This document shows positions 2 to 50,049 of a DNA stretch of 55,558 nt, in pieces (the first letter of the stretch is position 1; each line of letters begins with the position of its first letter). A program made the position numbers and the translations under genes. The stretch is from Candidatus Omnitrophota bacterium. GTDB lineage: Bacteria; Omnitrophota; Gorgyraeia; JABMRG01. The DNA lies in contig JBDRAM010000132.1 in assembly GCA_043823785.1 (NCBI GenBank), positions 1 through 55,558 of the forward strand, written 5' to 3'. The notes under the pieces are model-generated. The model saw only the letters and a list, made by a program, of their open reading frames with translations, was not told the DNA's origin and ran no database searches.

Positions 2-658
2 ATGAAAAAAAAGATAGTTATATGGGGTGCTTCAGGGCATGCCCTGGTAGTGTCCGATATAATCCGCCTGCGGGGCGAATACGAGATAGCGGGGTTTCTG
101 GATAATTTAAATCCAGGGCGCCATAAGAGCGAATTCTGCGGCTCAACCATTTTAGGAGGGCCTGAAGAGCTGGATGATTTCAAAAAGAAGGGTATCAGCT
201 ATATTATATTCGGTTTTGGCGATAATAATGCGAGGATTAGGCTGTCCAGGGTTGCTAAAGAAAAAGGGATGAAACTTGCTGCCGCCATACACCCCAAAGC
301 GGTAATTGCCGGAGATGTTTTAATAGGATGCGGGTCTGTTGTGTGCGCCGGGACGGTTGTTAACCCGGGGTCTAGTATCGGTGAGAACACTATTATTAAT
401 ACATCTGCCAGTATTGACCACGAGTGCTCTATAGGCGAAGGTGCGCACATAGGCCCTGGGGTCTGCCTTGGAGGAAAGGTAAAGATAGGAAAGGCCGCAT
501 GGATCTGCATCGGGTCAACTGTAAAAGATGGCATAAGCGTCGGAGCGGGTTCTATGATCGGCGCAGGCTCTCTGGTGCTCGATGATATTCCTTCAGGAGT
601 GATCGCGTATGGAGCTCCTGCAAAGGTAGTAAAGGAGGTAGAAGCAGATGCCGATTAA
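2..658 (+). CDS. Hexapeptide-repeat sugar acetyltransferase (NeuD/PglD-like)
   Basis: 218-aa ORF. N-terminal Rossmann-like KIVIWGASGHALVV is followed by left-handed beta-helix hexapeptide repeats (IGCGSVV, IGENTII, IGEGAHIGPG, IGAGSLV). It overlaps the downstream aminotransferase gene by 11 nt. Confidence 0.8.
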   Translation: MKKKIVIWGASGHALVVSDIIRLRGEYEIAGFLDNLNPGRHKSEFCGSTILGGPEELDDFKKKGISYIIFGFGDNNARIRLSRVAKEKGMKLAAAIHPKAVIAGDVLIGCGSVVCAGTVVNPGSSIGENTIINTSASIDHECSIGEGAHIGPGVCLGGKVKIGKAAWICIGSTVKDGISVGAGSMIGAGSLVLDDIPSGVIAYGAPAKVVKEVEADAD

Positions 659-1859
659 AAATAGCTTGGGCGAGCTGGCTGTTTTCGGTGGAAACCCTAT
701 TTTTGAGAAAAAACTCTATGTCGGCTGCCCCAACATTGGTGACCGGAAACGTTTTTTAGAAAGGGTAGAAGATATCTTAGAGAAAAGGTTATTAACAAAC
801 AACGGCCCCTATGTTCAGGAACTCGAGCAACGGTTGGCAGGGTTGGCTGGGGTTAAGCATTGCATAGCAACATGCAATGGTACCATAGCTCTTGAGATAG
901 CTATAAGGGCGCTTGATCTTTCCGGAGAGGTGATAGTTCCTTCCATGACATTTATTGCCACTGCTCATGCCCTGGAGTGGCAGGGGATCACGCCTGTCTT
1001 TTGCGATATTGACAGAAATACCTATAACCTTGATCCGGAAAAAATAGGGGAGCTGATTAGCCCAAGTACCACAGGTATCCTGGGGGTTCATCTTTGGGGC
1101 CGGCCATGCAACATCGACGGCCTTTTAGAAATTGCAGAAGAGCGCGGCCTCAAGCTTCTGTTTGATGCGTCGCACGCGTTTGGCTGCACATATAAAGGCA
1201 GCGCGATCGGGATGTTTGGAGACGCGGAAGTCTTTAGTTTTCACGCTACCAAATTTGTTAATACGCTTGAAGGCGGCGCGATCGCAACTAACAGCGATGA
1301 ACTTGCTAAAAAAATCCGGTTGATGAAAAACTTTGGTTTTTCCGGTTATGATAACGTTATCTATATAGGAACAAACGGGAAAATGAATGAGATATCAGCG
1401 GCCATGGGGCTAACTTCCCTTGAGAAGTTAGAAGAGTTTGTCGCGGTAAATCGCCGGAATTATCAACTATATGAGAATGGCCTGAGAGATATTCCGGGGG
1501 TGAGGCTTATGAAGTACGATGAGAACGAGAGATCCAATTACCAGTATATAGTAACAAGTATAGATAAAAAAATAACTAATATCGGCAGAGATGAGATTGT
1601 CAAAGTCTTGTGGGGTGAGAACGTATTGGCGCGGCGCTATTTCTACCCCGGCTGCCATCGTATGGAACCCTATCGTTCGCAGAATAGAAACTCCGGATTA
1701 ATACTGGCTGCGACAGATGAGGCCGCGGCGAGCACGATGCAGCTGCCCACAGGCACCTCGGTTGTAGAGGGAGATATCTCAAAAATATGCCAGATAATAA
1801 GATTTACAATTGCTAACGGCCCGGACGTAAGCAGGATGCTAGCGAAGGCGCGGGAATGA
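648..1859 (+). CDS. DegT/DnrJ/EryC1/StrS-family PLP-dependent sugar aminotransferase
   Basis: 403-aa ORF with family-typical blocks CIATCNGTIALEIA and FDASHAFG, and the PLP-lysine block SFHATKFVNTLEGGAI. Confidence 0.85.
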   Translation: MPIKNSLGELAVFGGNPIFEKKLYVGCPNIGDRKRFLERVEDILEKRLLTNNGPYVQELEQRLAGLAGVKHCIATCNGTIALEIAIRALDLSGEVIVPSMTFIATAHALEWQGITPVFCDIDRNTYNLDPEKIGELISPSTTGILGVHLWGRPCNIDGLLEIAEERGLKLLFDASHAFGCTYKGSAIGMFGDAEVFSFHATKFVNTLEGGAIATNSDELAKKIRLMKNFGFSGYDNVIYIGTNGKMNEISAAMGLTSLEKLEEFVAVNRRNYQLYENGLRDIPGVRLMKYDENERSNYQYIVTSIDKKITNIGRDEIVKVLWGENVLARRYFYPGCHRMEPYRSQNRNSGLILAATDEAAASTMQLPTGTSVVEGDISKICQIIRFTIANGPDVSRMLAKARE

Positions 1860-1897
1860 TTTTTTTAATTGCCTCCGCCAGCGCTTAGGACAAATAT

Positions 1898-2905
1898 ATG
1901 GAAAAAACTCATGAGCCTTTAGTCAGCTTTGTAGTTCTATGCTATAACCATGCCCTTTATATAAGGGACTGCATAGGCAGTATTCTAGATCAGGAAGGTA
2001 GTTATGATTTCGAGATCGTTATAGTCGACGACGCTTCTACGGATGAGAGCGCTGAAATCATACGTTCGTATTCAGACCCCCGTATTCGTTTTATCCTGCA
2101 TGAGAAAAATCTTGGCCATGCCGCTACAGTCAATGACGCGATGGCCAATACCCGCGGAGCTTATATCGCTCGTATAGACGCGGATGACCGCTACCGCCCA
2201 TATTTTCTAAAAGAGACTATGAAAATTTTCAACATGTTTCCCGAAGTCGGGGTTGCCTACGGGGATGCCTCATTAATTAATAAAGAGGGAGAGTTTACAT
2301 GCCAGCGCTGCGACAAAGTCCACGGCGGGAAGGATTTTAAGGGGAATGAATTTGTAAAATTACTCGAATACAATTTTATATGCTCGCCCGCGGTTATTGC
2401 CCGCCGCCAGGCCTGGCGGAGAGCGCTCCCTGCTCCCGGGCACCTGGTATTCCATGACTGGTATTTTACCGTTATGATGGCTCGCAGGCATGAATTTTAT
2501 TATATCAATTCTGTTATAGCAGATTACCGTGTGCACCCTGCTAATCTCCACAGCAAGATAGAAAAAGATAAAAGCTGGGAAGCATCGGTCTTCTCGTTAC
2601 TCAATCTTATTTACAGCCAGGTAGAGGAAGAGGCCGAACTCGAAGAAGAAAAAAATAGGCAGAGGCGGCGTATATACAGCGCGCAGTATTTATCTTTAGC
2701 TGATAAATATTTTGGGGCAGGAATGGGCCCTGACGCGCGGCGCTGTTACCTGAGAGCTATATTGTACAGGCCAAGCTATATATTAAGAATGAGCGTGATT
2801 TGGAGGTTATTAGGCACTCTGATGGGACGAAAAAATTATGAGTCGGTCAAGGCGATGGCCAAAGGCCTGATAGGTGCCTTACGCACGAAAAGCAGGGCTG
2901 GGTAA
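1898..2905 (+). CDS. Glycosyltransferase family 2
   Basis: 335 aa. GT-A signature VSFVVLCYNHALYIRDCIGSILDQ, EIVIVDDASTDES, ARIDADD. Confidence 0.85.
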   Translation: MEKTHEPLVSFVVLCYNHALYIRDCIGSILDQEGSYDFEIVIVDDASTDESAEIIRSYSDPRIRFILHEKNLGHAATVNDAMANTRGAYIARIDADDRYRPYFLKETMKIFNMFPEVGVAYGDASLINKEGEFTCQRCDKVHGGKDFKGNEFVKLLEYNFICSPAVIARRQAWRRALPAPGHLVFHDWYFTVMMARRHEFYYINSVIADYRVHPANLHSKIEKDKSWEASVFSLLNLIYSQVEEEAELEEEKNRQRRRIYSAQYLSLADKYFGAGMGPDARRCYLRAILYRPSYILRMSVIWRLLGTLMGRKNYESVKAMAKGLIGALRTKSRAG

Positions 2906-4080
2906 TGAAGCAGTTGAAGATATATGTTTGCCTTATAAGCGAGGACCAAAATAACCTTTGGCACCAGCATCTTACCAAGACGCTGCTGAAGATGGGCCAT
3001 AAGGTTTTTACTCCTGGGGATGTAGGCCTTCTTGACGCGTGGCGGTTTATCGCCCAAGGCTTTAGCAACCGCCGCCACATGGAACGGACAACAGAAAATA
3101 TTTTAGCGGAGGCGAAGAAGATACACGCGAAAGAAGGGATAGACCTCTTCTTTGCCTATCTATACCCTTTTCAGTTCAGGCCGAGGTTATTTAAGGAGCT
3201 GACTAAATTGGGTATTCCCAGTGTTTACTTTTTCTGCGACAACTTTACCCATAAGGATGTGGCCAGAGAATACGCACCCTACGCGACATTGAACTGGGTG
3301 CCGGAGAGCGAGGCTATTCCACAGTTTAAATCTTCTGGAAGTAAGTACATCTACCTGCCGATGGCGGCAAACCCTGATATTTTTTACCCCGTCGATACGG
3401 AAGAGACAGTGGATATATCTTTTTTAGGCTCTAAGAATCCTTATAGGCGCTACATTTTAGGACGGGCATTGCATGCAGGCCTAAACCTTAGGGTTTATGG
3501 CGGCTTTTGGTGCCCCGATAGCTGCTGCCAGAGCTCTGAGGCGGAGCATAAGGCAAATATCATAGAGCGATGTTTTACGCATGTGAGATTTAAGAAAAAT
3601 TCCATATCCCGTTTTTTGCGTTATGGATTAGGCCCAGTACGGCGCAGCAGGTGGTATAATAGGCTTGGAGAGGAATATGATAAGGTGCTTCAGGGTGTAT
3701 CCAACAGAGAGCCTCTTGATATTGTACAAGCCAACAGCGTTTATAGCTTTAGCGCCGTCAGTATAGGCACTAATGACCTGTTCGATTCGCTGTTAGAAAG
3801 AAAGTTTATTTTTTACACAAAAATGCGTAACTTTGAGGCTGCAATGGCAGGAGCCTGTTTTTTGATGCAGGCTACGCCGGACGGACACGAACTTTTTCAG
3901 GACGGAGAAGAGGTTATGTTCTATTCAACGCCTGAAGAGCTTATCGATAAGGCTAACTTTTTGCTAAGAAACGAGTCAGTTAGAAAAACGCTTAGGCTGG
4001 CAGCGCGAAAGCGAGCTCTTTTGGAGCATACCTGGTCGTGCAGGTTCAAAAAAGTTTTTTCCGCGCTGGAGATTGGCTGA
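2905..4080 (+). CDS. CgeB-like glycosyltransferase (Glyco_trans_1_2-type C-terminal domain)
   Basis: 391 aa. The C-terminal block FEAAMAGACFLMQ...GEEVMFYSTPEELIDKANFLL resembles CgeB-type GT-B domains. TAATG stop/start overlap with the upstream gene. Confidence 0.5.
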   Translation: MKQLKIYVCLISEDQNNLWHQHLTKTLLKMGHKVFTPGDVGLLDAWRFIAQGFSNRRHMERTTENILAEAKKIHAKEGIDLFFAYLYPFQFRPRLFKELTKLGIPSVYFFCDNFTHKDVAREYAPYATLNWVPESEAIPQFKSSGSKYIYLPMAANPDIFYPVDTEETVDISFLGSKNPYRRYILGRALHAGLNLRVYGGFWCPDSCCQSSEAEHKANIIERCFTHVRFKKNSISRFLRYGLGPVRRSRWYNRLGEEYDKVLQGVSNREPLDIVQANSVYSFSAVSIGTNDLFDSLLERKFIFYTKMRNFEAAMAGACFLMQATPDGHELFQDGEEVMFYSTPEELIDKANFLLRNESVRKTLRLAARKRALLEHTWSCRFKKVFSALEIG

Positions 4081-5063
4081 TGAATATTAATCATGATAAG
4101 GGACAGAAGATTTTAGAAAACAGCTATATTAAACCTGACGAGATAATTAACTGCCCTGTCTGTTTTTGCGAGAGCTCTGTTTTGGTTGTTGTCCGCTTTG
4201 ATACCGGGCACATAGTCCGCTGTTTAGAGTGCGGACATATCTACCTTAATCCTACATTAAGCGACAAAGCATTGAAGTGTTATTACGATCAGTATTATCA
4301 GATAGGTGACGTAGGTTCCTTGATGGAGAGGGTAGATAGATGGGTGATGGACCAGGATGGTATTTATCAGTATGTTATTAGTATGATAAAGCGGGATAGC
4401 GGCTTCACCGGCATGAGGATTCTTGATGTAGGCTGTGGTTGCGGCCGCTTCCTGCATGAATGCCGCAAACTTGGCGCGTCTGTAGCCGGGATAGACAAAA
4501 GTCCCCAGGCAGGCTATCTGGCAAAAAAATATTTCGGGTTGGATATAATTACAAAAACTCTTGAAGAATCGGCTCCGGAATTAATCCTGTCGAAAATTCA
4601 GTTTGACGTAATTTCCGCTTTTGAGATTTTGGAACATGTAAAAGAACCTGGAAAATTTTTGGAAAATCTCTATAAACTGCTTAAGCCGGGCGGTTTACTC
4701 TTTTTGACAACCCCTAATTTCTATCTATTTTATCTTATGGGTATATCCGCGCCCGCGGTAAGAGAGTTCCCTGTGCACATAAGCTTTTTTGAACCGGCGA
4801 CGTTAGAAAGACTCCTTACGCGGAAAGGATTTGAAGTAATGAATGTGGTTACTTTAAAACCGATGGGACCAGGGGATAGAGTCAGGCAAAAATTTGCTAA
4901 ATATTTTGTTAATAAGAAGATCTGGCGAAATCGTTTTTTTCGTAGAATATATCTAATAAAGAATAATGTTTTTAATATTTTAAACATGTATAAAGACAAT
5001 GCTGATATTAAGAATTGGAGCGGAGAAGCGCTGATCGGGGTTGCCCGTAAGATAGAACGCTAA
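4080..5063 (+). CDS. Class I SAM-dependent methyltransferase with N-terminal zinc ribbon
   Basis: Start moved to ATG 4080 (overlaps the upstream TGA; the track ORF at 4038 runs inside the previous gene). It has a 4-Cys ribbon CPVCF...CLECG and SAM motif I ILDVGCGCGRFL. Confidence 0.8.
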   Translation: MNINHDKGQKILENSYIKPDEIINCPVCFCESSVLVVVRFDTGHIVRCLECGHIYLNPTLSDKALKCYYDQYYQIGDVGSLMERVDRWVMDQDGIYQYVISMIKRDSGFTGMRILDVGCGCGRFLHECRKLGASVAGIDKSPQAGYLAKKYFGLDIITKTLEESAPELILSKIQFDVISAFEILEHVKEPGKFLENLYKLLKPGGLLFLTTPNFYLFYLMGISAPAVREFPVHISFFEPATLERLLTRKGFEVMNVVTLKPMGPGDRVRQKFAKYFVNKKIWRNRFFRRIYLIKNNVFNILNMYKDNADIKNWSGEALIGVARKIER

Positions 5064-33086: not shown

Positions 33087-33162
33087 GCCGAGGTAGCTCA
33101 GTTGGTAGAGCGAGGGCCTGAAAAGCCCTGCGTCACCAGTTCGATTCTGGTCTTCGGCACCA
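33087..33162 (+). tRNA. tRNA-Phe (GAA)
   Basis: 76-nt cloverleaf read by hand: acceptor GCCGAGG/CTTCGGC, D arm GCTC-AGTTGGTA-GAGC, anticodon arm AGGGC-CTGAAAA-GCCCT, T arm ACCAG-TTCGATT-CTGGT, discriminator A and an encoded CCA. Confidence 0.9.
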
Positions 33163-33206
33163 TTCTTTATATCCCCAAATAATAGTAGCTGCCCCGGAGT
33201 TCAGCG

Positions 33207-34475
33207 ATGAGAATAGTCTTAATAATTCCTCCTAATCCTTTTTTAGGCGATCAGAAAAGAAACTGCCCTTTGGGCATACTATACATAGCAGGCGTATTGG
33301 AAAAGGAAGGGTATCATACTGAGGCAGTCGACCTGCGCTGCCTGGAAGAAGATAAATGGCTTGAGAAGATACCTCAGGCAGATATATATGGCATTACGAC
33401 AAGCACGCCGGAATACCTTATCGCGTGCAGGGTCGCTAAGCTGGTAAAGAACAAATACAGCAACGCATGCATAGTGGTTGGCGGAGTCCATCCTACGGTT
33501 CTTCCGGATAGAATAGACCCTGTCTTTGATAAGGTCGTAGTAGGAGAAGGGGAGAGGGCTATACTTGATGTGGTCAACGATTGCAAGAATGGGGTTGAAA
33601 AAAGATTCTACCAAAGTCCTGTCATAGAGAACCTGGACGACATCCCTTTGCCCGCAAGGCACCTTTTACCTCCGGATTCTGTTATAAGCGATAAGCTTGT
33701 TGTGCCCGGAATCCCCGCAACAACTATAGTCACCTCAAGAGGATGCCCGTTCAACTGCTCTTTCTGTTCAAGCCCAAGGATGTGGGGAAGGCGTGTAAGG
33801 TTCAGAAGCGCGGATAGCGTAGTAGCGGAGATAGAGAAGATTAAAAAGGATTACGGGATAACACATTTCAGGTTCCAGGATGATGTTATGGGCGCGAACA
33901 AGAAGATATTTTTAGAAATGTTTGAAAAGATGCAGCCTCTGGGAATAAGGTGGAGGGCAAACCTGCATGTAAACGTATCAACCACAGAGCTATTAGAAGC
34001 TATGAAAAAAGCCGGGTGCTTTGAGATACACTATGGCGTAGAGACTATCTCACAGGATGTATTAGATAAAAATAACAGGGGAATGAAACTCGACGTAATA
34101 TATAAGGCAGTTGAAAATACAAAAAAGCTTGGCTTACGGGTCAGGCTGTTCTTCATAATAGGCCTTCCCTTCGAGGAGCAAGGCATAGCAGACAGGACCA
34201 TAGAATTTATCAAGAAAGTCGGGCCGGACGGAGTTGATTTATCTACCTTTATACCTTTCCCAGGCTCTGATGTATTTAATAACCCGTCTAAATACGGTAT
34301 AGAGATACTCTCCAAGGATTTTGATGATTATTATATGAGCATTGGCTTGTATATGGGTGAGAGTGAGAAAGATTTTATATGTAAGCATTCAAACTTAAGC
34401 AACGATGAGCTTAAGTTTGAGAGAAAAAAATTACTCGATTTTATAGAAAAATACAATTTAGCACTGAATAAGTAG
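33207..34475 (+). CDS. B12-binding-domain radical SAM protein
   Basis: 422 aa. N-terminal cobalamin-binding-like Rossmann (IVVGGVHPT) and radical SAM motif TSRGCPFNCSFCS. Confidence 0.85.
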   Translation: MRIVLIIPPNPFLGDQKRNCPLGILYIAGVLEKEGYHTEAVDLRCLEEDKWLEKIPQADIYGITTSTPEYLIACRVAKLVKNKYSNACIVVGGVHPTVLPDRIDPVFDKVVVGEGERAILDVVNDCKNGVEKRFYQSPVIENLDDIPLPARHLLPPDSVISDKLVVPGIPATTIVTSRGCPFNCSFCSSPRMWGRRVRFRSADSVVAEIEKIKKDYGITHFRFQDDVMGANKKIFLEMFEKMQPLGIRWRANLHVNVSTTELLEAMKKAGCFEIHYGVETISQDVLDKNNRGMKLDVIYKAVENTKKLGLRVRLFFIIGLPFEEQGIADRTIEFIKKVGPDGVDLSTFIPFPGSDVFNNPSKYGIEILSKDFDDYYMSIGLYMGESEKDFICKHSNLSNDELKFERKKLLDFIEKYNLALNK

Positions 34476-34488
34476 TATATATAAAAAG

Positions 34489-34969
34489 GCTGGCGTGGCT
34501 TCCTCCTTCGCACTTACTACTGGTTTGCAACTGTAGTGCTACGGAGGACGGGACGCCACGCCGTAAAAGATGAAGCGAGCTGGCGTGGCTTAAATGAGCA
34601 CATAACTTAGCGAGCAAAGCGAAGCTAAGTTATAAGTGCGAATTTATCCTGAGGACACAAAGTGTCCGAAGGATCTTTGATAGGTGCCTGTAATAACAAT
34701 TGATAACTAGAGACACTTCGGTTGCTAAAATGCTCCCAAGGGTTGCATTTTTGACGCAACCTCAGTGTCAAATTTGCACACAAATTTGAGCTGGCGTGGC
34801 TTCCTCCTTCGCACTTACTGCTGGTTTGCAACTGTAGTGCTGCGGCGGACGGGACGCCACGCCGTAAAAGATGAAGCGAGCTGGCGTGGCTTCCTCCTTC
34901 GCACTTACTACTGGTTTGCAACTGTAGTGCTGCGGAGGACGGGACGCCACGCCGTAAAAGATGAAGCGA
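34489..34969 (+). repeat. 90-bp tandem array; each unit starts with nt 1-12 of tRNA-Thr
   Basis: Full units lie at 34489-34578, 34790-34879 and 34880-34969, with 1-3 substitutions between copies. A bare 12-mer GCTGGCGTGGCT lies at 34579-34590. The array is interrupted by a 199-bp insert and runs straight into the intact tRNA at 34970. Confidence 0.9.
34591..34789 (+). other. 199-bp hairpin-rich insert inside the tandem array
   Basis: It is flanked on both sides by the 12-mer GCTGGCGTGGCT. It contains hairpins at 34598-34639 (ATAACTTAGC/GCTAAGTTAT), 34646-34674 (ATCCT-GA-GGACAC-AAA-GTGTCC-GA-AGGAT) and GGTTGC/GCAACC, plus twin palindromes CAAATTTG. Confidence 0.7.
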
Positions 34970-35044
34970 GCTGGCGTGGCTCAACGGTAGAGCAGCGCAT
35001 TCGTAATGCGCAGGTTGGTGGTTCGATTCCACTCGCCAGCTCCA
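34970..35044 (+). tRNA. tRNA-Thr (CGT)
   Basis: 75-nt cloverleaf: acceptor GCTGGCG/CGCCAGC, D arm GCTC-AACGGTA-GAGC, anticodon arm GCGCA-TTCGTAA-TGCGC, variable AGGTT, T arm GGTGG-TTCGATT-CCACT, discriminator T and an encoded CCA. Confidence 0.9.
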
Positions 35045-35178
35045 TCCGCCTTCGCCCTTGTTACTCGGATGCCACTGTAGGGCTTCTGCGGATAAGTCCT
35101 CCGAAGCATTACAGTAGTTTACCAGTATAAAATGCGAAGGAGGACAGGTTGGTGGTTCGATTCCACTCGCCAGCTCCA
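35045..35178 (+). repeat. 100-nt TIR-bounded hairpin element followed by an exact 34-nt orphan copy of the tRNA-Thr 3' end
   Basis: 35145-35178 is identical to 35011-35044 (CAGGTTGGTGGTTCGATTCCACTCGCCAGCTCCA). The element at 35045-35144 is closed by TCCGCCTTCGC/GCGAAGGAGGA. An inner hairpin lies at 35074-35115. Confidence 0.85.
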
Positions 35179-35300
35179 TGTTCAGTTCATCTGTTCAACG
35201 GTTCGTCGGTTCGGTGGTTTATAATTTTGACTGTTGAACGCGTAGTACAAGGCGGATTTTTTAACAGATGAACAGACGAACAGCAGAACTATTTTTTATT

Positions 35301-36578
35301 ATGTCAAAACTAAGAGCAGTTCTAAAAGAGCCGAATTTTTTTCTTCTCTGGCTGGGCCAGCTCATATCCCAGTTTGGCGATAAGTTTACCCAGATGGCAC
35401 TGGTAGGCCTTGTTTATAAAAAAGCGCCGGGTTCTACTCTTGAATTAGCAAAGCTATTTATATTTGTCATTGTCCCGGTTTTTATAGTAGGCCCTTTGGC
35501 AGGAGCCTATTCAGATAGGTGGAGCAGGAAATATACTATGATAGTTTCCGATGCTATCAGGGGCGGCCTTGTTCTTTTGATAGTGCTATACTGGGCTTTT
35601 GTGCCTACGCTTCAGCCTATATTTCCTATATATATAATTGTCTTTATAATTTTTTCTGTTACACGCTTTTATGTACCGTCTAAAATGTCTATAATACCTG
35701 ACATGGTTGATCCTGACAAACTGCTTGAAGCAAACTCATTAATACACACAACCGGTATGGTAGCGGCGGCCCTTGGTTTTGGCATAGGAGGCATTATAAT
35801 ATCATTGCCGTCCATAGGCGTTAAAGGCGGCCTTCTTATAGATGCTGCCACCTTTTTTGTATCTGCCCTGCTGCTTATCTTCATAAGGGTAAGGAAACGG
35901 GAACCAAAGATAACAGAGGCCATATCAGTACTGGGCAAGCGCCTAAAGGAGGTCATGGCGAAGTCGGTTTTTGGTGAGATAAAAGATGGCCTGATGTATC
36001 TCTTTTCTCACAGGAAGATGCATTTTGTAATAGCGCTTCTATTTCTTTTATGGAGTGGTGTAGGGGCGAGCCACGTGGTTATAATAGTTTTTATACAGCA
36101 GGCCTTAGCAAGCATAACCAGAGACCTTGGCCTTCTTATAATGTTTTTTTCTATCGGACTTTTCTGCGGGTCCATAGTTTACGGCAAGTTTGGCCAAAGG
36201 TTATCCAAGGCAAGGGCAATATTTTTAAGCCTTATCCTGGGAGGGTTTTTATTAATAGGGTTTGTGGTCATCTTAAACATGCATGCTAATTTTCATTCAG
36301 CGTCTATGATAACCTTTCTTTTTGGCTGCTCGCTGTCTCCTATAATGATATCCTCTAATACGATTGTCCATGAGCTTATACCGGCCGAGCTGAGGGGGAG
36401 GGTATTTTCTTCTCTTGAGGCTGTTATGCATCTGGCATACCTGATATTTATGGTAGCTTCCGCCATGTTAGCGGAAGTGATAAATAATTTTTATATACTG
36501 CTTGCGATAGGAATAATATTTATATGCTCAGGTATATTTGGTATTAAAAAGATACCTTCGGCAAGGAGCTATTCATAA
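35301..36578 (+). CDS. MFS transporter
   Basis: About 425 aa from ATG 35301 (the track ORF starts at 35268), with about 12 TM helices. The N-terminus LWLGQLISQFGDKFTQMALV is typical of MFS efflux/EntS-like proteins. Confidence 0.8.
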   Translation: MSKLRAVLKEPNFFLLWLGQLISQFGDKFTQMALVGLVYKKAPGSTLELAKLFIFVIVPVFIVGPLAGAYSDRWSRKYTMIVSDAIRGGLVLLIVLYWAFVPTLQPIFPIYIIVFIIFSVTRFYVPSKMSIIPDMVDPDKLLEANSLIHTTGMVAAALGFGIGGIIISLPSIGVKGGLLIDAATFFVSALLLIFIRVRKREPKITEAISVLGKRLKEVMAKSVFGEIKDGLMYLFSHRKMHFVIALLFLLWSGVGASHVVIIVFIQQALASITRDLGLLIMFFSIGLFCGSIVYGKFGQRLSKARAIFLSLILGGFLLIGFVVILNMHANFHSASMITFLFGCSLSPIMISSNTIVHELIPAELRGRVFSSLEAVMHLAYLIFMVASAMLAEVINNFYILLAIGIIFICSGIFGIKKIPSARSYS

Positions 36579-37940: not shown

Positions 37941-38333
37941 ATGATTAAAAAAAAGATTACAGAGATTAAAGAAAGAGATTCTTTGACTGAAAAAATAATA
38001 GGCTGTTCCTATAAAGTGCATAGCGAGCTAGGGCCAGGTTTTAATGAAGGCATATATCACAATGCTTTAAAGATAGTATTGCAAGAGCAAGGGTTAAAAT
38101 ACCAAAGCGAAAAAAGTTTTGATGTTAGGTATCAAGACAAAGATGTCGGTAGGTTTAGAGTAGATTTAATTATAGAAAACAATGTTATAGTCGAGGTAAA
38201 GGCAATAGCAGGGAATATGCCTATTGTATTTGAAAAGCAGGTCTTGTCATATCTGAAAGCATCAGGATATAAGACAGGACTCTTAATAAATTTTGGTAAT
38301 AAAAGTTGTCAAGTAAGGAGATTAATGTTTTAA
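37941..38333 (+). CDS. GxxExxY protein (PD-(D/E)XK nuclease-fold, PDDEXK_3-like)
   Basis: About 130 aa. It has the eponymous motif GFNEGIY, then D...VEVK (RVDLIIENNVIVEVKA) and a C-terminal GLLINFG. It is inserted between rnfC and rnfD. Confidence 0.8.
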   Translation: MIKKKITEIKERDSLTEKIIGCSYKVHSELGPGFNEGIYHNALKIVLQEQGLKYQSEKSFDVRYQDKDVGRFRVDLIIENNVIVEVKAIAGNMPIVFEKQVLSYLKASGYKTGLLINFGNKSCQVRRLMF

Positions 38334-38398
38334 TCTCAGTAATCTAAATTAATCTGTGTAATCAGGTATAATTTTTAATTATGCTTAATAATTATACC
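38331..38398 (+). repeat. AATCT/GTAATC box module, copy A (two boxes plus hairpin)
   Basis: TAATCTCAGTAATCTAAATTAATCTGTGTAATCA is followed directly by the hairpin GGTATAATT(38365-38373)/AATTATACC(38390-38398). The box part is near-identical to copy B. Confidence 0.85.
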
Positions 38399-39886: not shown

Positions 39887-39945
39887 TAGGAGCCGCCTCC
39901 CCCGGACCATTCGCTTTGCTCAGGTACGGGGCAAGCCGGCGGCGG
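39885..39945 (+). repeat. GC-rich stop-abutting palindromic element (TAGTAGGAGC family), copy 1, with a nested hairpin
   Basis: AGTAGGAGCCGCCTCCC starts inside the rnfG stop codon. The outer stem is GCCGCC(39892-97)/GGCGGC(39938-43). The nested hairpin is CCCCGGACC/GGTACGGGG with the loop ATTCGCTTTGCTCA. Confidence 0.8.
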
Positions 39946-42724: not shown

Positions 42725-43930
42725 GTGTTTGGTTTCTTGACTAAATATATCTTATTAATTGATATAGGGACTACAACGATATCAGGCGCTATTTTTGATA
42801 AAGAAAAAGGGCGCGTACTATCCTCAGATTTTATTTTAAATGAGCAGATAAGATATGGAGATGACGTTATATCAAGAATAGATCATGCTCTTAGGAAAAT
42901 CGCGAACGCGGCATCTCTCCAGAGAGCAGTAGTCTTATCTATAAATAAGTTGTCCGGGAAGCTTTTTTCGCAGGCTAAAAAAAGTCACAAAGACATCGGT
43001 TCGGCCTTCTGCGTATGCAATACCGCCATACACCATCTTTTTTTAGGAATAGATACGGCCCCGCTTATTACCCCGCCATACAAGCCGTCTCAAAAATCAG
43101 AGATCACTATATATGCTGACAGAATAGGCCTTAAGCTTGAGAAAGATTGCCCGGTGACTCTACTGCCTAACGTAGAAGGTTTTGTAGGCTCTGACGCTCT
43201 TGCGGTTATTATAGCAAGCGGTATCTATAAATCAAGAGCAGTAAAGCTGGCCATAGACATGGGAACAAACGGTGAAGTAGTCTTGGGAAGCGCGGGGAGA
43301 ATATTTGCAGCGTCTGCCGCGGCAGGGCCCGCGTTTGAGGGAAGGCATATAAGCTGCGGCATGCCGGCTATAAAAGGGGCGATAAAATCAATAGAGATGA
43401 AAGGCGGCTCTTTTAAAATCGATGTTATAGGAGGAGGAGCCCCTAAGGGAATATGCGGCAGCGCCTTGATAGACGCGGCTTCATGTATGCTTAAAAATGG
43501 GTTGATGAACAGCTCAGGCAGGATGAATGAGCCTGAATTTGTATTTTATAAAAAAGGAAGAACCAAGATTTCGGTGACGCAACAGGATATAAGAAAGCTG
43601 CAGCTTGCCAAGGCCGCTATATACGCCGCGGTAAAAATACTTTTAAGAAAATCACGCATAAGCAAAGAAGAGATAACCGAGGTACTCTTTACAGGCTCTT
43701 TTGGCAGCGTAGTGAACACTGATAGCATAGCGGCAATAGGGCTTGTGCCTAAAATAGATAAGAGAAGAATAAGATTCCTTGAAAAAGGCGCGCTTGAAGG
43801 GCTTAAGATTTATGCAGGCAGTCTGTCTTTACAGAAAAAGATCACATCTATATTAAGCAGCATAAAACATATACCGCTTCTTGGCAAGGGTTTTAGCGAA
43901 GAGTTTACCTCGTCTATGTTTTTGGGGTGA
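42725..43930 (+). CDS. ASKHA-fold DUF4445 protein (RACo C-terminal-domain-like), lacking the Fe-S N-terminal domain
   Basis: 401 aa; the GTG start is uncertain. Blocks LLIDIGTTTISGAIFD, AIDMGTNGEVVLG and AAGPAFEGRHISCGM are as I recall for corrinoid-activase-type ASKHA domains. Confidence 0.6.
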   Translation: MFGFLTKYILLIDIGTTTISGAIFDKEKGRVLSSDFILNEQIRYGDDVISRIDHALRKIANAASLQRAVVLSINKLSGKLFSQAKKSHKDIGSAFCVCNTAIHHLFLGIDTAPLITPPYKPSQKSEITIYADRIGLKLEKDCPVTLLPNVEGFVGSDALAVIIASGIYKSRAVKLAIDMGTNGEVVLGSAGRIFAASAAAGPAFEGRHISCGMPAIKGAIKSIEMKGGSFKIDVIGGGAPKGICGSALIDAASCMLKNGLMNSSGRMNEPEFVFYKKGRTKISVTQQDIRKLQLAKAAIYAAVKILLRKSRISKEEITEVLFTGSFGSVVNTDSIAAIGLVPKIDKRRIRFLEKGALEGLKIYAGSLSLQKKITSILSSIKHIPLLGKGFSEEFTSSMFLG

Positions 43931-43936
43931 TCTTAG

Positions 43937-44007
43937 AATCTCTGTAATCTAAATTAATCTTTGTAATCAAGAGATTGTCCTGTGTTTTCATTTTTGAGAC
44001 AATCTCT
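43937..44007 (+). repeat. AATCT/GTAATC box module, copy B
   Basis: AATCTCTGTAATCTAAATTAATCTTTGTAATCA is followed by the hairpin AGAGATTGTC(43970-79)/GACAATCTCT(43998-44007). Confidence 0.85.
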
Positions 44008-48904: not shown

Positions 48905-48980
48905 GAATTAGAACTTAAGCATTGATGTTTGACATGCAACATACGACGCGGGGTGGAGCAGCCCGGTAGCTCGCAAGGCT

Positions 48981-49621
48981 CAATGGATACAAAGCTCAAA
49001 GCGGATATTGCAGAATCGTCTGTAGTAACTGAACTTCTAAAAAGAGGATTCAGTGTGCTAAGACCTGTTGGAGATCGGCTTTCTTATGATATAGGGATCG
49101 ATCTTAAGGGCAAATTTGTCCGTATTCAGGTCAAGAGCGCTTGGTTCAACGAAAGAGATAAATGCTACGTTGTAGATGCACGTAGAACCAAGACAAACAG
49201 ACGGCGCATGATCAGAAAGCGTTATAAGGCTGATGATTTCGATTTTGCAATTATCCATATAGCTGACTTAAATGTGTTCTATGTTATGCCTCTGACAGTA
49301 TTTTCTAATTATAGAAGCACTGTTACGCTAATAGAATCAAGCAAAAGGCAACGAAAACCTAAGTCAGCATGCTACAGAGAGCGATGGGATTTATTGTCCA
49401 AGGGCCCATTATCCGGTAACGGGTAATGAAAACCTGTCAAATTCGGTGAAACCCTCGATATAAAAATCAGGGCAATACCGAGCCAAGTCCGCACAGGCGG
49501 AAAGGTGTAGAGACTAGTTGGCAGGAATCCTAAGACATTAGGATTATGGTATAGTCCAGACTACGAACATGCGGTACTTTTATGCGCAGTGCAGCATGGC
49601 AGTGAAAACTGTAGTAGTAAG
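48981..49621 (+). mobile_element. Group I intron (IC3-like core) with a homing-endonuclease ORF
   Basis: The 5' exon ends in U and the intron ends in G. The core at 49430-49621 contains CCTGTCAAATTCGGTGAAACC, CCGAGCCAAG, GAAAGGTGTAGAGACTAG and CCTAAG, closely like the Azoarcus tRNA-Ile intron as I recall it. P3 is CCTGTC/GGCAGG and P7 is GACTA/TAGTC. Confidence 0.85.
48983..49426 (+). CDS. PD-(D/E)XK homing endonuclease (I-Ssp6803I-like)
   Basis: 147 aa from ATG 48983 (the track ORF 48929 reads through the tRNA exon). The block AESSVVTELLKRGFSVLRPVGDRLSYDIGIDLKGKFVRIQVKS gives a D...D...QVK nuclease core. It lies inside the tRNA-Met intron. Confidence 0.8.
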   Translation: MDTKLKADIAESSVVTELLKRGFSVLRPVGDRLSYDIGIDLKGKFVRIQVKSAWFNERDKCYVVDARRTKTNRRRMIRKRYKADDFDFAIIHIADLNVFYVMPLTVFSNYRSTVTLIESSKRQRKPKSACYRERWDLLSKGPLSGNG

Positions 49622-49674
49622 CATAACCTTGAGGTCAGAGGTTCAAATCCTCTCCCCGCTACCATTAGCGCTTC

Positions 49675-49755
49675 CGCAGTTACGGAACGAAGTGAACGTA
49701 ACTGCGAGAAACGACTTATGCCCCGTACCGGAGCGAAGCGACTGGTACGGGGCAT
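49675..49755 (+). repeat. Two consecutive hairpins with AGCRA-AGCRA-type loops
   Basis: The first is CGCAGTTACG-GAACGAAGTGAA-CGTAACTGCG (49675-49706). The second is ATGCCCCGTACCGG-AGCGAAGCGA-CTGGTACGGGGCAT (49718-49755). Confidence 0.85.
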
Positions 49756-49874: not shown

Positions 49875-49896
49875 GCAAATCCTCTCCCTGCTATCA
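49875..49896 (+). repeat. Degenerate duplicate of the tRNA-Met 3' end
   Basis: GCAAATCCTCTCCCTGCTATCA compares with the tRNA 3' end TCAAATCCTCTCCCCGCTACCA (49643-49664), with 19 of 22 positions identical. Confidence 0.65.
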
Positions 49897-50049
49897 TAAA
49901 AAACCCCCCAAGCATGATAGCCCCTGAGGTTTTTATCTGCTATTTAAATTATTTACAATACTGGTAATTGTAATTGATTGTTATGATTAACTGATATAAA
50001 ATATACCTTAAGTGAGAATATTAAAATTTAGCATTTCTGAGGTAGCCAA

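Follow-up and report, generated by a model that had tools for sequence, protein, structure and literature searches.

A conserved hairpin module joined to duplicated ends of tRNA genes in Omnitrophota

The tRNA-Thr locus

Contig JBDRAM010000132.1 of a Candidatus Omnitrophota bacterium (assembly GCA_043823785.1; the whole 55,558 nt were analysed and are referred to here as the window) carries an intact tRNA-Thr(CGT) gene that is flanked on both sides by partial copies of its own ends and by copies of a 49-nt hairpin module, M. Pfam searches of open reading frames (ORFs) of at least 120 aa identify in the window a polysaccharide-biosynthesis cluster, a B12-binding radical SAM (rSAM) gene, an MFS gene, rnf genes, RACo, enolase and similar housekeeping genes. 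Reading rightwards, the rSAM stop codon is followed by 13 nt, a 12-mer joined to module copy M1 and a tail, a second 12-mer joined to 199 nt of other sequence, two further 12-mers each joined to a module (M2 and M3) and a tail, the tRNA-Thr gene, a piece with the layout M'-TAA-M4 in which M4 is inverted, an orphan 34-mer, 122 nt, and the MFS gene (Table 1).

On the 3' side, the first-pass annotation of this DNA had reported that the last 34 nt of tRNA-Thr recur perfectly downstream of the gene. The copy is indeed perfect, and the identity runs one base further, giving an exact direct repeat of 35 nt (100%; repeat family D2). The copy inside the gene extends from the last base of the anticodon stem through the variable loop, T arm, 3' acceptor strand and CCA to one additional T. 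The repeat itself is real and beyond chance, the 25-nt core occurring twice in the window and in none of 100 shuffles.

The 100 nt between the 34-mers (35045–35144) start with TCCGCCTTCGC and end with GCGAAGGAGGA, which match as an inverted repeat at 10 of 11 positions, and they fold into a single long imperfect hairpin (-41.5 kcal/mol, z = -4.8; 0 of 200 shuffles as stable). The 11-bp terminal inverted repeat previously proposed for this piece is therefore present at its tips, but it is the outer end of a full-length imperfect palindrome and not the boundary of one element; likewise, the inner hairpin described at 35074–35115 exists but is the apical part of the same 100-nt structure. The piece is an inverted doublet of M with arms that are 69% alike. 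M' matches the body of the upstream 90-bp units at 36 of 49 positions (73%), in agreement with the homology proposed earlier for the first ~48 nt, and the second half (35096–35144), whose nature had gone unremarked, is the reverse complement of that body (82%). M is found both in the upstream array and in the 100-nt piece by repeat comparison, alignment and covariance model, which upholds the suggestion that the two share an origin.

This hairpin of two inverted M copies stands between tRNA-Thr and the MFS–rnf genes. It is followed by CAGGTTGG instead of a U-tract and a terminator scan is blank there, so it does not qualify as an intrinsic terminator. The spacer between the second repeat copy and the MFS start (35301), for which no homologue was found, contains a further inverted repeat, which by eye is like the ACAG-rich trailers after the tRNAs of two related loci, L091 and L104 (loci from other genomes are designated by L numbers).

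On the 5' side, each 90-bp unit opens with GCTGGCGTGGCT, which is positions 1–12 of tRNA-Thr, a feature missing from the first-pass annotation. This 12-mer occurs five times in the window (at 34489, 34579, 34790, 34880 and in the tRNA itself), against an expectation of 0.14. Every 90-bp unit itself folds as a hairpin (-40 to -45 kcal/mol), which in unit 1 is lengthened by GCCACGCC in the tail, complementary to tRNA positions 4–11. The units are 94–98% identical throughout and have no variable spacers, and thus do not constitute a CRISPR array. Nor do the fragments make up a split or permuted tRNA: the 12-mer (positions 1–12) and the 34-mer (from position 42) between them leave out the entire anticodon arm and the greater part of the D arm, and an intact tRNA-Thr stands between them. 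The 199-nt segment within the array, for which no homologue was found, holds three or four strong hairpins, one with the loop GAGCAAAGCGAA; a 13-mer in it, GCGAGCAAAGCGA, is common to the 3' inserts of L099, a related locus described below.

Coding interpretations of the array were considered and rejected. The 90-bp unit corresponds to 30 codons with one open frame, and the ORFs concerned (34765–35130 on the forward strand and 34625–35179 on the reverse) cross the tRNA gene. A small ORF, MKRAGVASSFALTTGLQL, at each junction of tail and 12-mer has no credible ribosome-binding site. Finally, the units could have been the precursor peptide of a modified-peptide natural product made by the adjacent B12-rSAM, and a relative keeps the rSAM gene without the units.

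Table 1 Features of the tRNA-Thr locus. R1 is the covariance model of module M.
Feature	Position	Strand	Evidence
Orphan 12-mer copy 1, GCTGGCGTGGCT	34489..34500	+	13 nt past rSAM stop; start of tRNA in L098
M1, 49-nt hairpin module of unit 1	34501..34549	+	R1 65.2 bits; fold
Tail of unit 1, CGGGACGCCACGCCGTAAAAGATGAAGCGA	34550..34578	+	Repeat comparison (I11-I19), fold
Orphan 12-mer copy 2, followed by unrelated sequence, not M	34579..34590	+	Sequence, 12-mer count
Unique hairpin-rich 199-nt segment within array	34591..34789	+	No homologue found
90-bp unit 2: 12-mer, M2 (34802-34850), tail	34790..34879	+	Repeat comparison, R1
90-bp unit 3: 12-mer, M3 (34892-34940), tail	34880..34969	+	Repeat comparison, R1
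Intact tRNA-Thr(CGT)	34970..35044	+	ARAGORN; Rfam 68.9 bits
Repeat copy 1, inside tRNA-Thr	35011..35045	+	Repeat comparison, family D2
M' (M5), hairpin module directly after CCA	35045..35093	+	R1 58.6 bits; M-like trailer at equivalent place in L085
M4, inverted module copy	35096..35144	-	R1 62.3 bits; 82% to M1 and M3; pairs with M'
Repeat copy 2, orphan tRNA-Thr 3' fragment	35145..35179	+	35/35 identical to copy 1
Inverted repeat, arms 17–19 nt, 84–88% complementary	35182..35281	+	Repeat comparison

A family of hairpin modules at tRNA ends

A first alignment of nine M copies, on which the covariance model R1 was built, gave an RNAalifold consensus in which a symmetric internal loop separates two 5-bp stems that show compensatory changes. 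R1 finds 13 copies of M in five Omnitrophota loci (the window, L085, L099, L104 and L105) and none in 595 kb of unrelated control loci. Eleven of the 13 copies have their 5' end directly against a tRNA or a piece of one, with no gap; the neighbour is a 5' piece of a Thr, Phe or Val tRNA or an intact 3' end. The sequence 3' of M is conserved only within one genome. The 13-copy alignment was fitted to R1, which biases pair counts toward the structure; in it, standard pairs occupy 95% of cells, four pairs are changed on both sides, and the covariation score is 0.42, compared with 0.15 for shuffled alignments (0 of 500 reach 0.42) and at most 0.10 for slid controls. Ten of the 13 copies contain the motif GTAG. 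The outer stem of M, TCCTCC/GGAGGA, is without GTT/AAC cores, which sets M apart from integron attC sites (RYYYAAC ... GTTRRRY).

The five window copies are all at tRNA-Thr, in 55 kb with about 50 intergenic regions. Elsewhere M adjoins other tRNAs. In L104 it is joined to a copy of tRNA-Val positions 1–17, and the complete tRNA-Val gene lies downstream; in L105 a first copy adjoins the CCA of tRNA-Phe, a second follows in tandem, and a third, inverted, ends 16 nt before tRNA-Thr. A scan with the 3' 28-mer of the tRNA identified L099 (contig JABMQS010000021 of an Omnitrophota metagenome-assembled genome), which has two ~125-nt units upstream of tRNA-Thr, each consisting of an 11-mer, GCTGGCGTGGC, and M, and one unit upstream of tRNA-Phe made of that tRNA's own first 11 nt and M. 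The M copies of L099 are closer to each other than to copies from different genomes. M is absent in L089, L090, L091, L102 and L106, so that occupancy differs among close relatives.

Because M is also fused to fragments of other tRNAs in other genomes, what has to be explained is a family of tRNA-associated hairpin modules and not a single event at tRNA-Thr. The first-pass annotation had raised the possibility of a gutted integrative element; the orphan tRNA 3' end beside non-coding inserted DNA fits that proposal, but the module family does not fit a single gutted island. A hairpin-module family fused to tRNA-gene ends in Omnitrophota is previously undescribed.

Database searches with the locus returned the tRNA and little else. 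Rfam, searched with 34400–35350 at gathering thresholds and at permissive E-values, matched tRNA as the sole family, and blastn against phages and plasmids detected tRNA similarity only. The tRNA 3' 28-mer is absent from viral contigs, which thus offer no candidate phage attachment site. An earlier M pattern had no matches in genome and viral collections and four in metagenomes, each a chance match within a coding region, and a better motif, GGTAGGGCTTCGRAGGA, had two matches on viral contigs that R1 scored as noise.

The locus in related genomes

Homologues of the flanking MFS gene place the organism in Candidatus Omnitrophota. The common gene order in relatives is tRNA-Phe, ~120 nt, tRNA-Thr(CGT), MFS and rnfC (L089, L090, L091, L102–L104 and L106). 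The closest relative of the window is represented by L098 and L085, two contigs of one Logan sample, in which the rSAM (L098) and MFS (L085) genes are 83% and 85% identical to those of the window. L098 ends with the rSAM stop, 19 nt and then GCTGGCGTGGCTCAACGG...CAGGT, and L085 starts with GGTAGAGC...; we joined them through a 30-nt overlap of the contig ends. The joined sequence reads rSAM, tRNA-Thr, one M-like trailer that is 67% identical to M', and MFS. All 75 nt of the window tRNA-Thr are identical to the tRNA assembled in this way and also to the copy in L099.

The joined relative has a single 12-mer, a single 34-mer and no 90-bp array. The comparison with an empty site that was suggested at first pass thus finds one, subject to the 30-nt join and to a possible vestige in L085, GTCCTGCGTAGCTCCA. 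The relative's 'empty' site nevertheless retains one M-like hairpin directly after the tRNA, and for this reason not all of the 100 nt can be insert.

The position of the array points to how it began. In the nearest relative 19 nt separate the rSAM stop from the tRNA; in the window the leftmost 12-mer lies 13 nt after that stop, at the ancestral start of the tRNA. Sequence has therefore entered the gene, with positions 1–12 supplied again on the right, and an upstream M was not duplicated in tandem. Both duplications are either specific to the window lineage or lost in the relative.

The 16-nt GTCCTGCGTAGCTCCA of L085 lies 72 nt after its tRNA, matches the start of reverse-complemented M4 (M4rc) at 10 of 12 positions and continues with TCCA. 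As a lead only, this is the remnant that would be expected from a deletion between two AGC triplets of an arrangement of M4rc followed by the 34-mer, and the 3' duplication may then be older than the split of the window and L085 lineages. If so, the 35/35 identity needs explaining, given the ~30% divergence of the non-coding DNA around it; possible causes are selection, repeated recombination between the copies, and gene conversion from the tRNA, which is 134 nt distant.

The same tRNA cluster varies in other ways. The window has its rSAM gene (33087–34475) between tRNA-Phe and tRNA-Thr, which are ~120 nt apart in most relatives, and in L098 the rSAM gene is preceded by a second, divergent B12-rSAM gene in place of tRNA-Phe. 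We considered the rSAM gene as cargo of an insertion and rejected this, as it adjoins the tRNA in the closest relative too. L091 has an integrase island at this cluster (363–3650), composed of an HTH_17 (excisionase-like) gene, a tyrosine integrase and a 560-aa ORF; an orphan tRNA-Asp 3' fragment, CCCGTCGTCCCCGCCA, comes next, with tRNA-Phe ~100 nt further on. In L087 (63–1018; also L086 and L088; a lineage whose MFS is 73% identical), a DUF3800 gene of 260 aa between tRNA-Thr and MFS represents a different insertion at the same tRNA-Thr/MFS site. An apparent 30-nt tRNA-Val repeat in L103 borders an N run and was excluded from the evidence; this run, which lies between two tRNA-Val copies (4336–4476), may be a masked stretch or a scaffold gap and could hide an L104-like unit. 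Contig breaks inside the tRNA in Logan loci (L085, L087 and L095–L097) were also discounted, since a conserved tRNA of co-occurring species breaks assembly graphs anyway.

Other tRNA-end duplications and repeats

Downstream of both its tRNAs, L099 has homologous ~148-nt inserts followed by orphan 3' copies that begin in the T loop (20 nt for Thr and 45 nt for Phe), and an orphan tRNA-Thr 3' 20-mer occurs in L109. No homology was found between the 3'-side inserts of L099 and the window. The ~148-nt inserts belong to a second family of tRNA 3'-flank inserts that is without M (L099 4408–4598 and 5014–5181; L109 77–249; L089 3875–3960). Near the left end these have an inverted copy of the T loop and 3' T stem of the host tRNA that varies with the tRNA (CCAGAATCG for Phe, AGTGGAATCG for Thr, CAGAGGAATTGAA in L089 and CAGAGGAATCGAA in L109), and in L099 and L109 the insert is followed by the orphan 3' fragment beginning in the T loop.

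The window itself contains a second, older tRNA 3'-end duplication, at tRNA-fMet. Here 22 nt from the T loop to CCA plus T are repeated with 20 of 22 positions identical (49644–49665 and 49876–49897). The copy starts 232 nt after the original; the intervening 210 nt are rich in hairpins, one of which is terminator-like. The tRNA-fMet(CAU) gene (48948–49664), which ARAGORN missed, is split by a ~630-nt group I intron (Rfam Intron_gpI core 49381–49574, 68.2 bits) into a 5' exon, CGCGGGGTGGAGCAGCCCGGTAGCTCGCAAGGCTCA, and a 3' exon ending ...CCCCGCTACCA. The intron opens with an ORF, running from an ATG at 48984 to 49426, that matches a PD-(D/E)XK endonuclease family (PF11645, 4.6e-41), and its product is likely to be a homing endonuclease.

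Two further repeats are present in the window. A 34-nt GC-rich hairpin of the type ATGCCCCGTACC...GGTACGGGGCAT occurs after tRNA-fMet (49719–49752) and, in the opposite orientation and with 88% identity, between rnf genes (39900–39933), and may be a separate repeat resembling repetitive extragenic palindromes (REPs). A 40-nt AT-rich intergenic repeat of the type ATCTCAGTAATCTAAATTAATCTGTGTAATCA (88%) follows two genes 5.6 kb apart (38325–38364 and 43930–43969), and related 22-nt inverted matches lie at 37955 and 46796.

Origin of the tRNA-end repeats

A bare duplication of a tRNA 3' end is an ordinary type of scar; what is unusual here is its miniature form with a conserved hairpin module. Our preferred explanation, which we hold tentatively and at a probability of roughly 45%, derives the pieces from site-specific insertions at tRNA genes: they would be miniature remnants or satellites of these, flanked by repeats, that have expanded through unequal crossover or further insertions. 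A small non-coding insertion would enter tRNA-Thr, and the segment from the entry point to the gene end would be supplied again, leaving an intact tRNA and the second 34-mer as an orphaned 3' segment, with the four upstream orphan 12-mers as the 5'-side equivalent. The inserted DNA belongs to the family built on the two-stem hairpin M, which always has the same end toward the tRNA-derived block. The most likely origin of such insertions is tyrosine-integrase-type site-specific recombination at tRNA attachment sites, where attL and attR are partial tRNAs. The present pieces would then be integrase-less satellites or remnants between attachment-site repeats, resembling cis-mobilizable elements (CIMEs), which are integrated elements that have kept their attachment sites and lost the integrase. 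Repeated insertion, or unequal crossover between 12-mers, would have multiplied the 5' array, and M may be the segment with which the element adjoins the attachment site, serving as an end-proximal transcription insulator or terminator or as a protein-binding hairpin.

Several observations argue for remnants or satellites of this kind. Both repeats are terminal segments of one tRNA and leave one intact gene, as at an attachment scar, and the joined L098 and L085 contigs provide the relative's unoccupied, single-copy site. Fusions of tRNA fragments to M, or orphan 3' pieces, recur in L099, L104, L109 and at the tRNA-fMet of the window, and integrase elements do enter this tRNA cluster in relatives, as seen in L091. 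The full identity of the 34-mers (35/35), set against 69% for the M arms and 67% for the relative's trailer, is expected from recent or repeated recombination between copies. Partial tRNAs acting as attachment sites, tandem elements between partial tRNAs and degenerate remnants are all documented, and site-specific tRNA integration is the established route to an intact tRNA with orphan terminal fragments, serial integration and decay giving several partials (bioRxiv 10.1101/2020.12.28.424599; PMC9897764). With the known attL/attR systems (tandem build-up, remnants, tycheposons and integrase-less CIMEs) the loci described here share terminal tRNA repeats with one intact gene, orphan copies in series, variable occupancy and, in L091, an integrase island with an orphan tRNA fragment. 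They differ in having no integrase, in inserts of 78–148 nt, in the additional use of the tRNA 5' end, and in one hairpin module common to Thr, Phe and Val inserts that have differing breakpoints.

A number of findings weigh against this explanation. No integrase, recombinase, excisionase, transposase, REP-associated tyrosine transposase (RAYT, Y1) or reverse transcriptase was detected among the window ORFs searched with Pfam, as the first-pass annotation had noted for integrases (rnfC, rnfD and 35 other ORFs gave housekeeping families or none), and no such gene adjoins any M copy in the fetched loci. There is accordingly no integrase between or beside the repeats, and the 34-mers are only 100 nt apart. 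The inserts, of which at least nine are independent, are all 78–148 nt long, an outcome that random decay of large islands is unlikely to yield. M is joined to three tRNAs, with breakpoints after position 11–12, after 17, after 76 and, reversed, at 41/42; integrases usually have a single target and a single crossover point, and the 5' part of a tRNA is atypical as an attachment site. Some M copies have no repeat on their flanks and come straight after intact tRNAs or in tandem (L105). Circles of 90–134 bp are poor recombination substrates, and limited searches found no full-length element carrying M.

The M modules may instead be undescribed non-autonomous mobile elements that enter tRNA genes and depend on an enzyme encoded elsewhere, either copying a terminal tRNA segment, so that the target duplication is long and differs in length from case to case, or bringing along a block derived from the target. 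We consider this unlikely. A fixed 5' end of M meets variable tRNA breakpoints in Thr, Phe and Val genes of three genomes, the greater likeness among the L099 copies suggests spread within that genome, all inserts are small and non-coding, their presence varies among relatives, and the covariation of the stems is as expected of a hairpin that is recognised. Set against this, no candidate enzyme was seen in the window or beside the M copies, no known transposase gives 11–45-nt duplications that always reach the gene end, the lineage-specific sequence after M leaves the other end of the element undefined, and the only 13 copies known are all in one syntenic tRNA neighbourhood. A more specific form of the idea, doubtful to the same degree, is that M is a tRNA-targeting element that fuses by a fixed end to the 5' or 3' side of Thr, Phe and Val genes, the gene being regenerated by terminal copying. 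This would involve a new transposition or recombination chemistry or a carried 'address', and might create a tRNA-like processing stalk as a side-effect. It is kept alive by the tiny inserts, the use of the 5' end, the three tRNAs and their breakpoints, the repeat-free M copies and the lack of a parent element. The more conventional proposal made at first pass, a miniature inserted element, does not fit if a classical miniature inverted-repeat transposable element (MITE) is meant. MITEs are also small, non-coding and hairpin-forming with inverted-repeat ends, but here each 'terminal repeat' is an entire module, the two being 69% alike, and the flanking repeats (34–35 and 12 nt in the window; 11, 17, 20 and 45 nt in relatives) are not a short duplication of fixed length. 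Neither dispersed copies nor a parent transposon were found: the five window copies are all at tRNA-Thr, phage, plasmid and viral sets were blank, and the window has no transposase.

M could also be chiefly a functional RNA, its hairpins acting as processing or termination signals in tRNA leaders and trailers; we judge this improbable. The 12-mer with M1 could pair with M4rc and the 34-mer to form a stalk that carries an acceptor/T-arm minihelix and RNase III and RNase P sites. Such a structure would parallel the leader–trailer processing stems of rRNA and tRNA operons (RNase III), with inverted copies pairing into a ~49-bp helix that encloses the gene. The predicted global fold of 34480–35300 (z = -7.8) does pair 34489–34549 with 35096–35172 and keeps the T-arm hairpin, the two pieces are predicted to cofold at -88.4 kcal/mol, the stems covary, M in the window, L085 and L105 adjoins the very 3' end of a tRNA, and the orphan 34-mer has not drifted. 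However, the local hairpins (-39.8 and -41.5 kcal/mol) are about as stable as the long-range pairing and compete with it, the helix would enclose extra units, no U-tract follows the hairpin, and most relatives process the same tRNA without M. A functional RNA would also leave the origin of the tRNA fragments unexplained. The explanations are partly compatible in that M could be an insulator or processing hairpin whatever placed it there.

Similarly low is the chance that M is a REP-like palindrome and the 100-nt piece a REPIN-like doublet moved by a RAYT, with the tRNA repeats as by-products of recombination or slippage at hairpins. The resemblance to REP/REPIN systems lies in the imperfect palindrome with a GTAG core, in the ~100-nt inverted doublet with a 2–3-nt spacer that forms a long hairpin (35045–35144, -41.5 kcal/mol), in the extragenic location, and in the tandem and inverted intergenic clusters, of which the two tandem copies and one inverted copy between tRNA-Phe and tRNA-Thr in L105 recall enterobacterial bacterial interspersed mosaic elements (BIMEs; clustered REP arrays). 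But at 49 nt M is longer than typical REPs, the copies seen are at tRNAs or their fragments and have long tRNA-derived flanking repeats, and in the DNA covered they are neither dispersed nor numerous: all five in the window are at one tRNA, and the 595 kb of control loci contain none. There is no Y1 or RAYT gene in the window, Y1 transposition makes no duplications, and the leftmost 12-mer, at the ancestral start of the tRNA, contradicts an origin of the repeats by tandem duplication.

Very improbable is descent from several tRNA-Thr genes in tandem that were once separated by M and have since decayed, internal deletions making the fragments. In its favour, M starts exactly after CCA and the unit tail stops exactly before tRNA position 1, as in a spacer between genes. 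But microhomology deletion would keep CCA/ACCA, which is absent at the Thr, Phe and Val junctions, deletions in all three tRNAs would have to stop precisely at the edge of M, the same 12|13 junction also joins unrelated sequence at 34591, and the relative has a single gene at the ancestral site. Tandem duplication and microhomology deletion were rejected on the junction sequences and on the ancestral state in the relative.

Partial tRNA copies are normally read as the footprints of large integrase-bearing islands. Here, in a phylum that is uncultivated, they surround inserts of 78–148 nt that contain one conserved, covarying hairpin and are found at the 5' as well as the 3' ends of several different tRNA genes; in annotation, the orphan pieces should not be called tRNA genes or pseudogenes. 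Modules that are themselves mobile would represent a compact way to enter essential genes without destroying them, and would explain the frequent short-read assembly breaks at this tRNA cluster. Even as remnants they mark an insertion hotspot that extends over tRNA-Val, tRNA-Asp, tRNA-Phe and tRNA-Thr, and R1 is a searchable marker with which active elements might be found.

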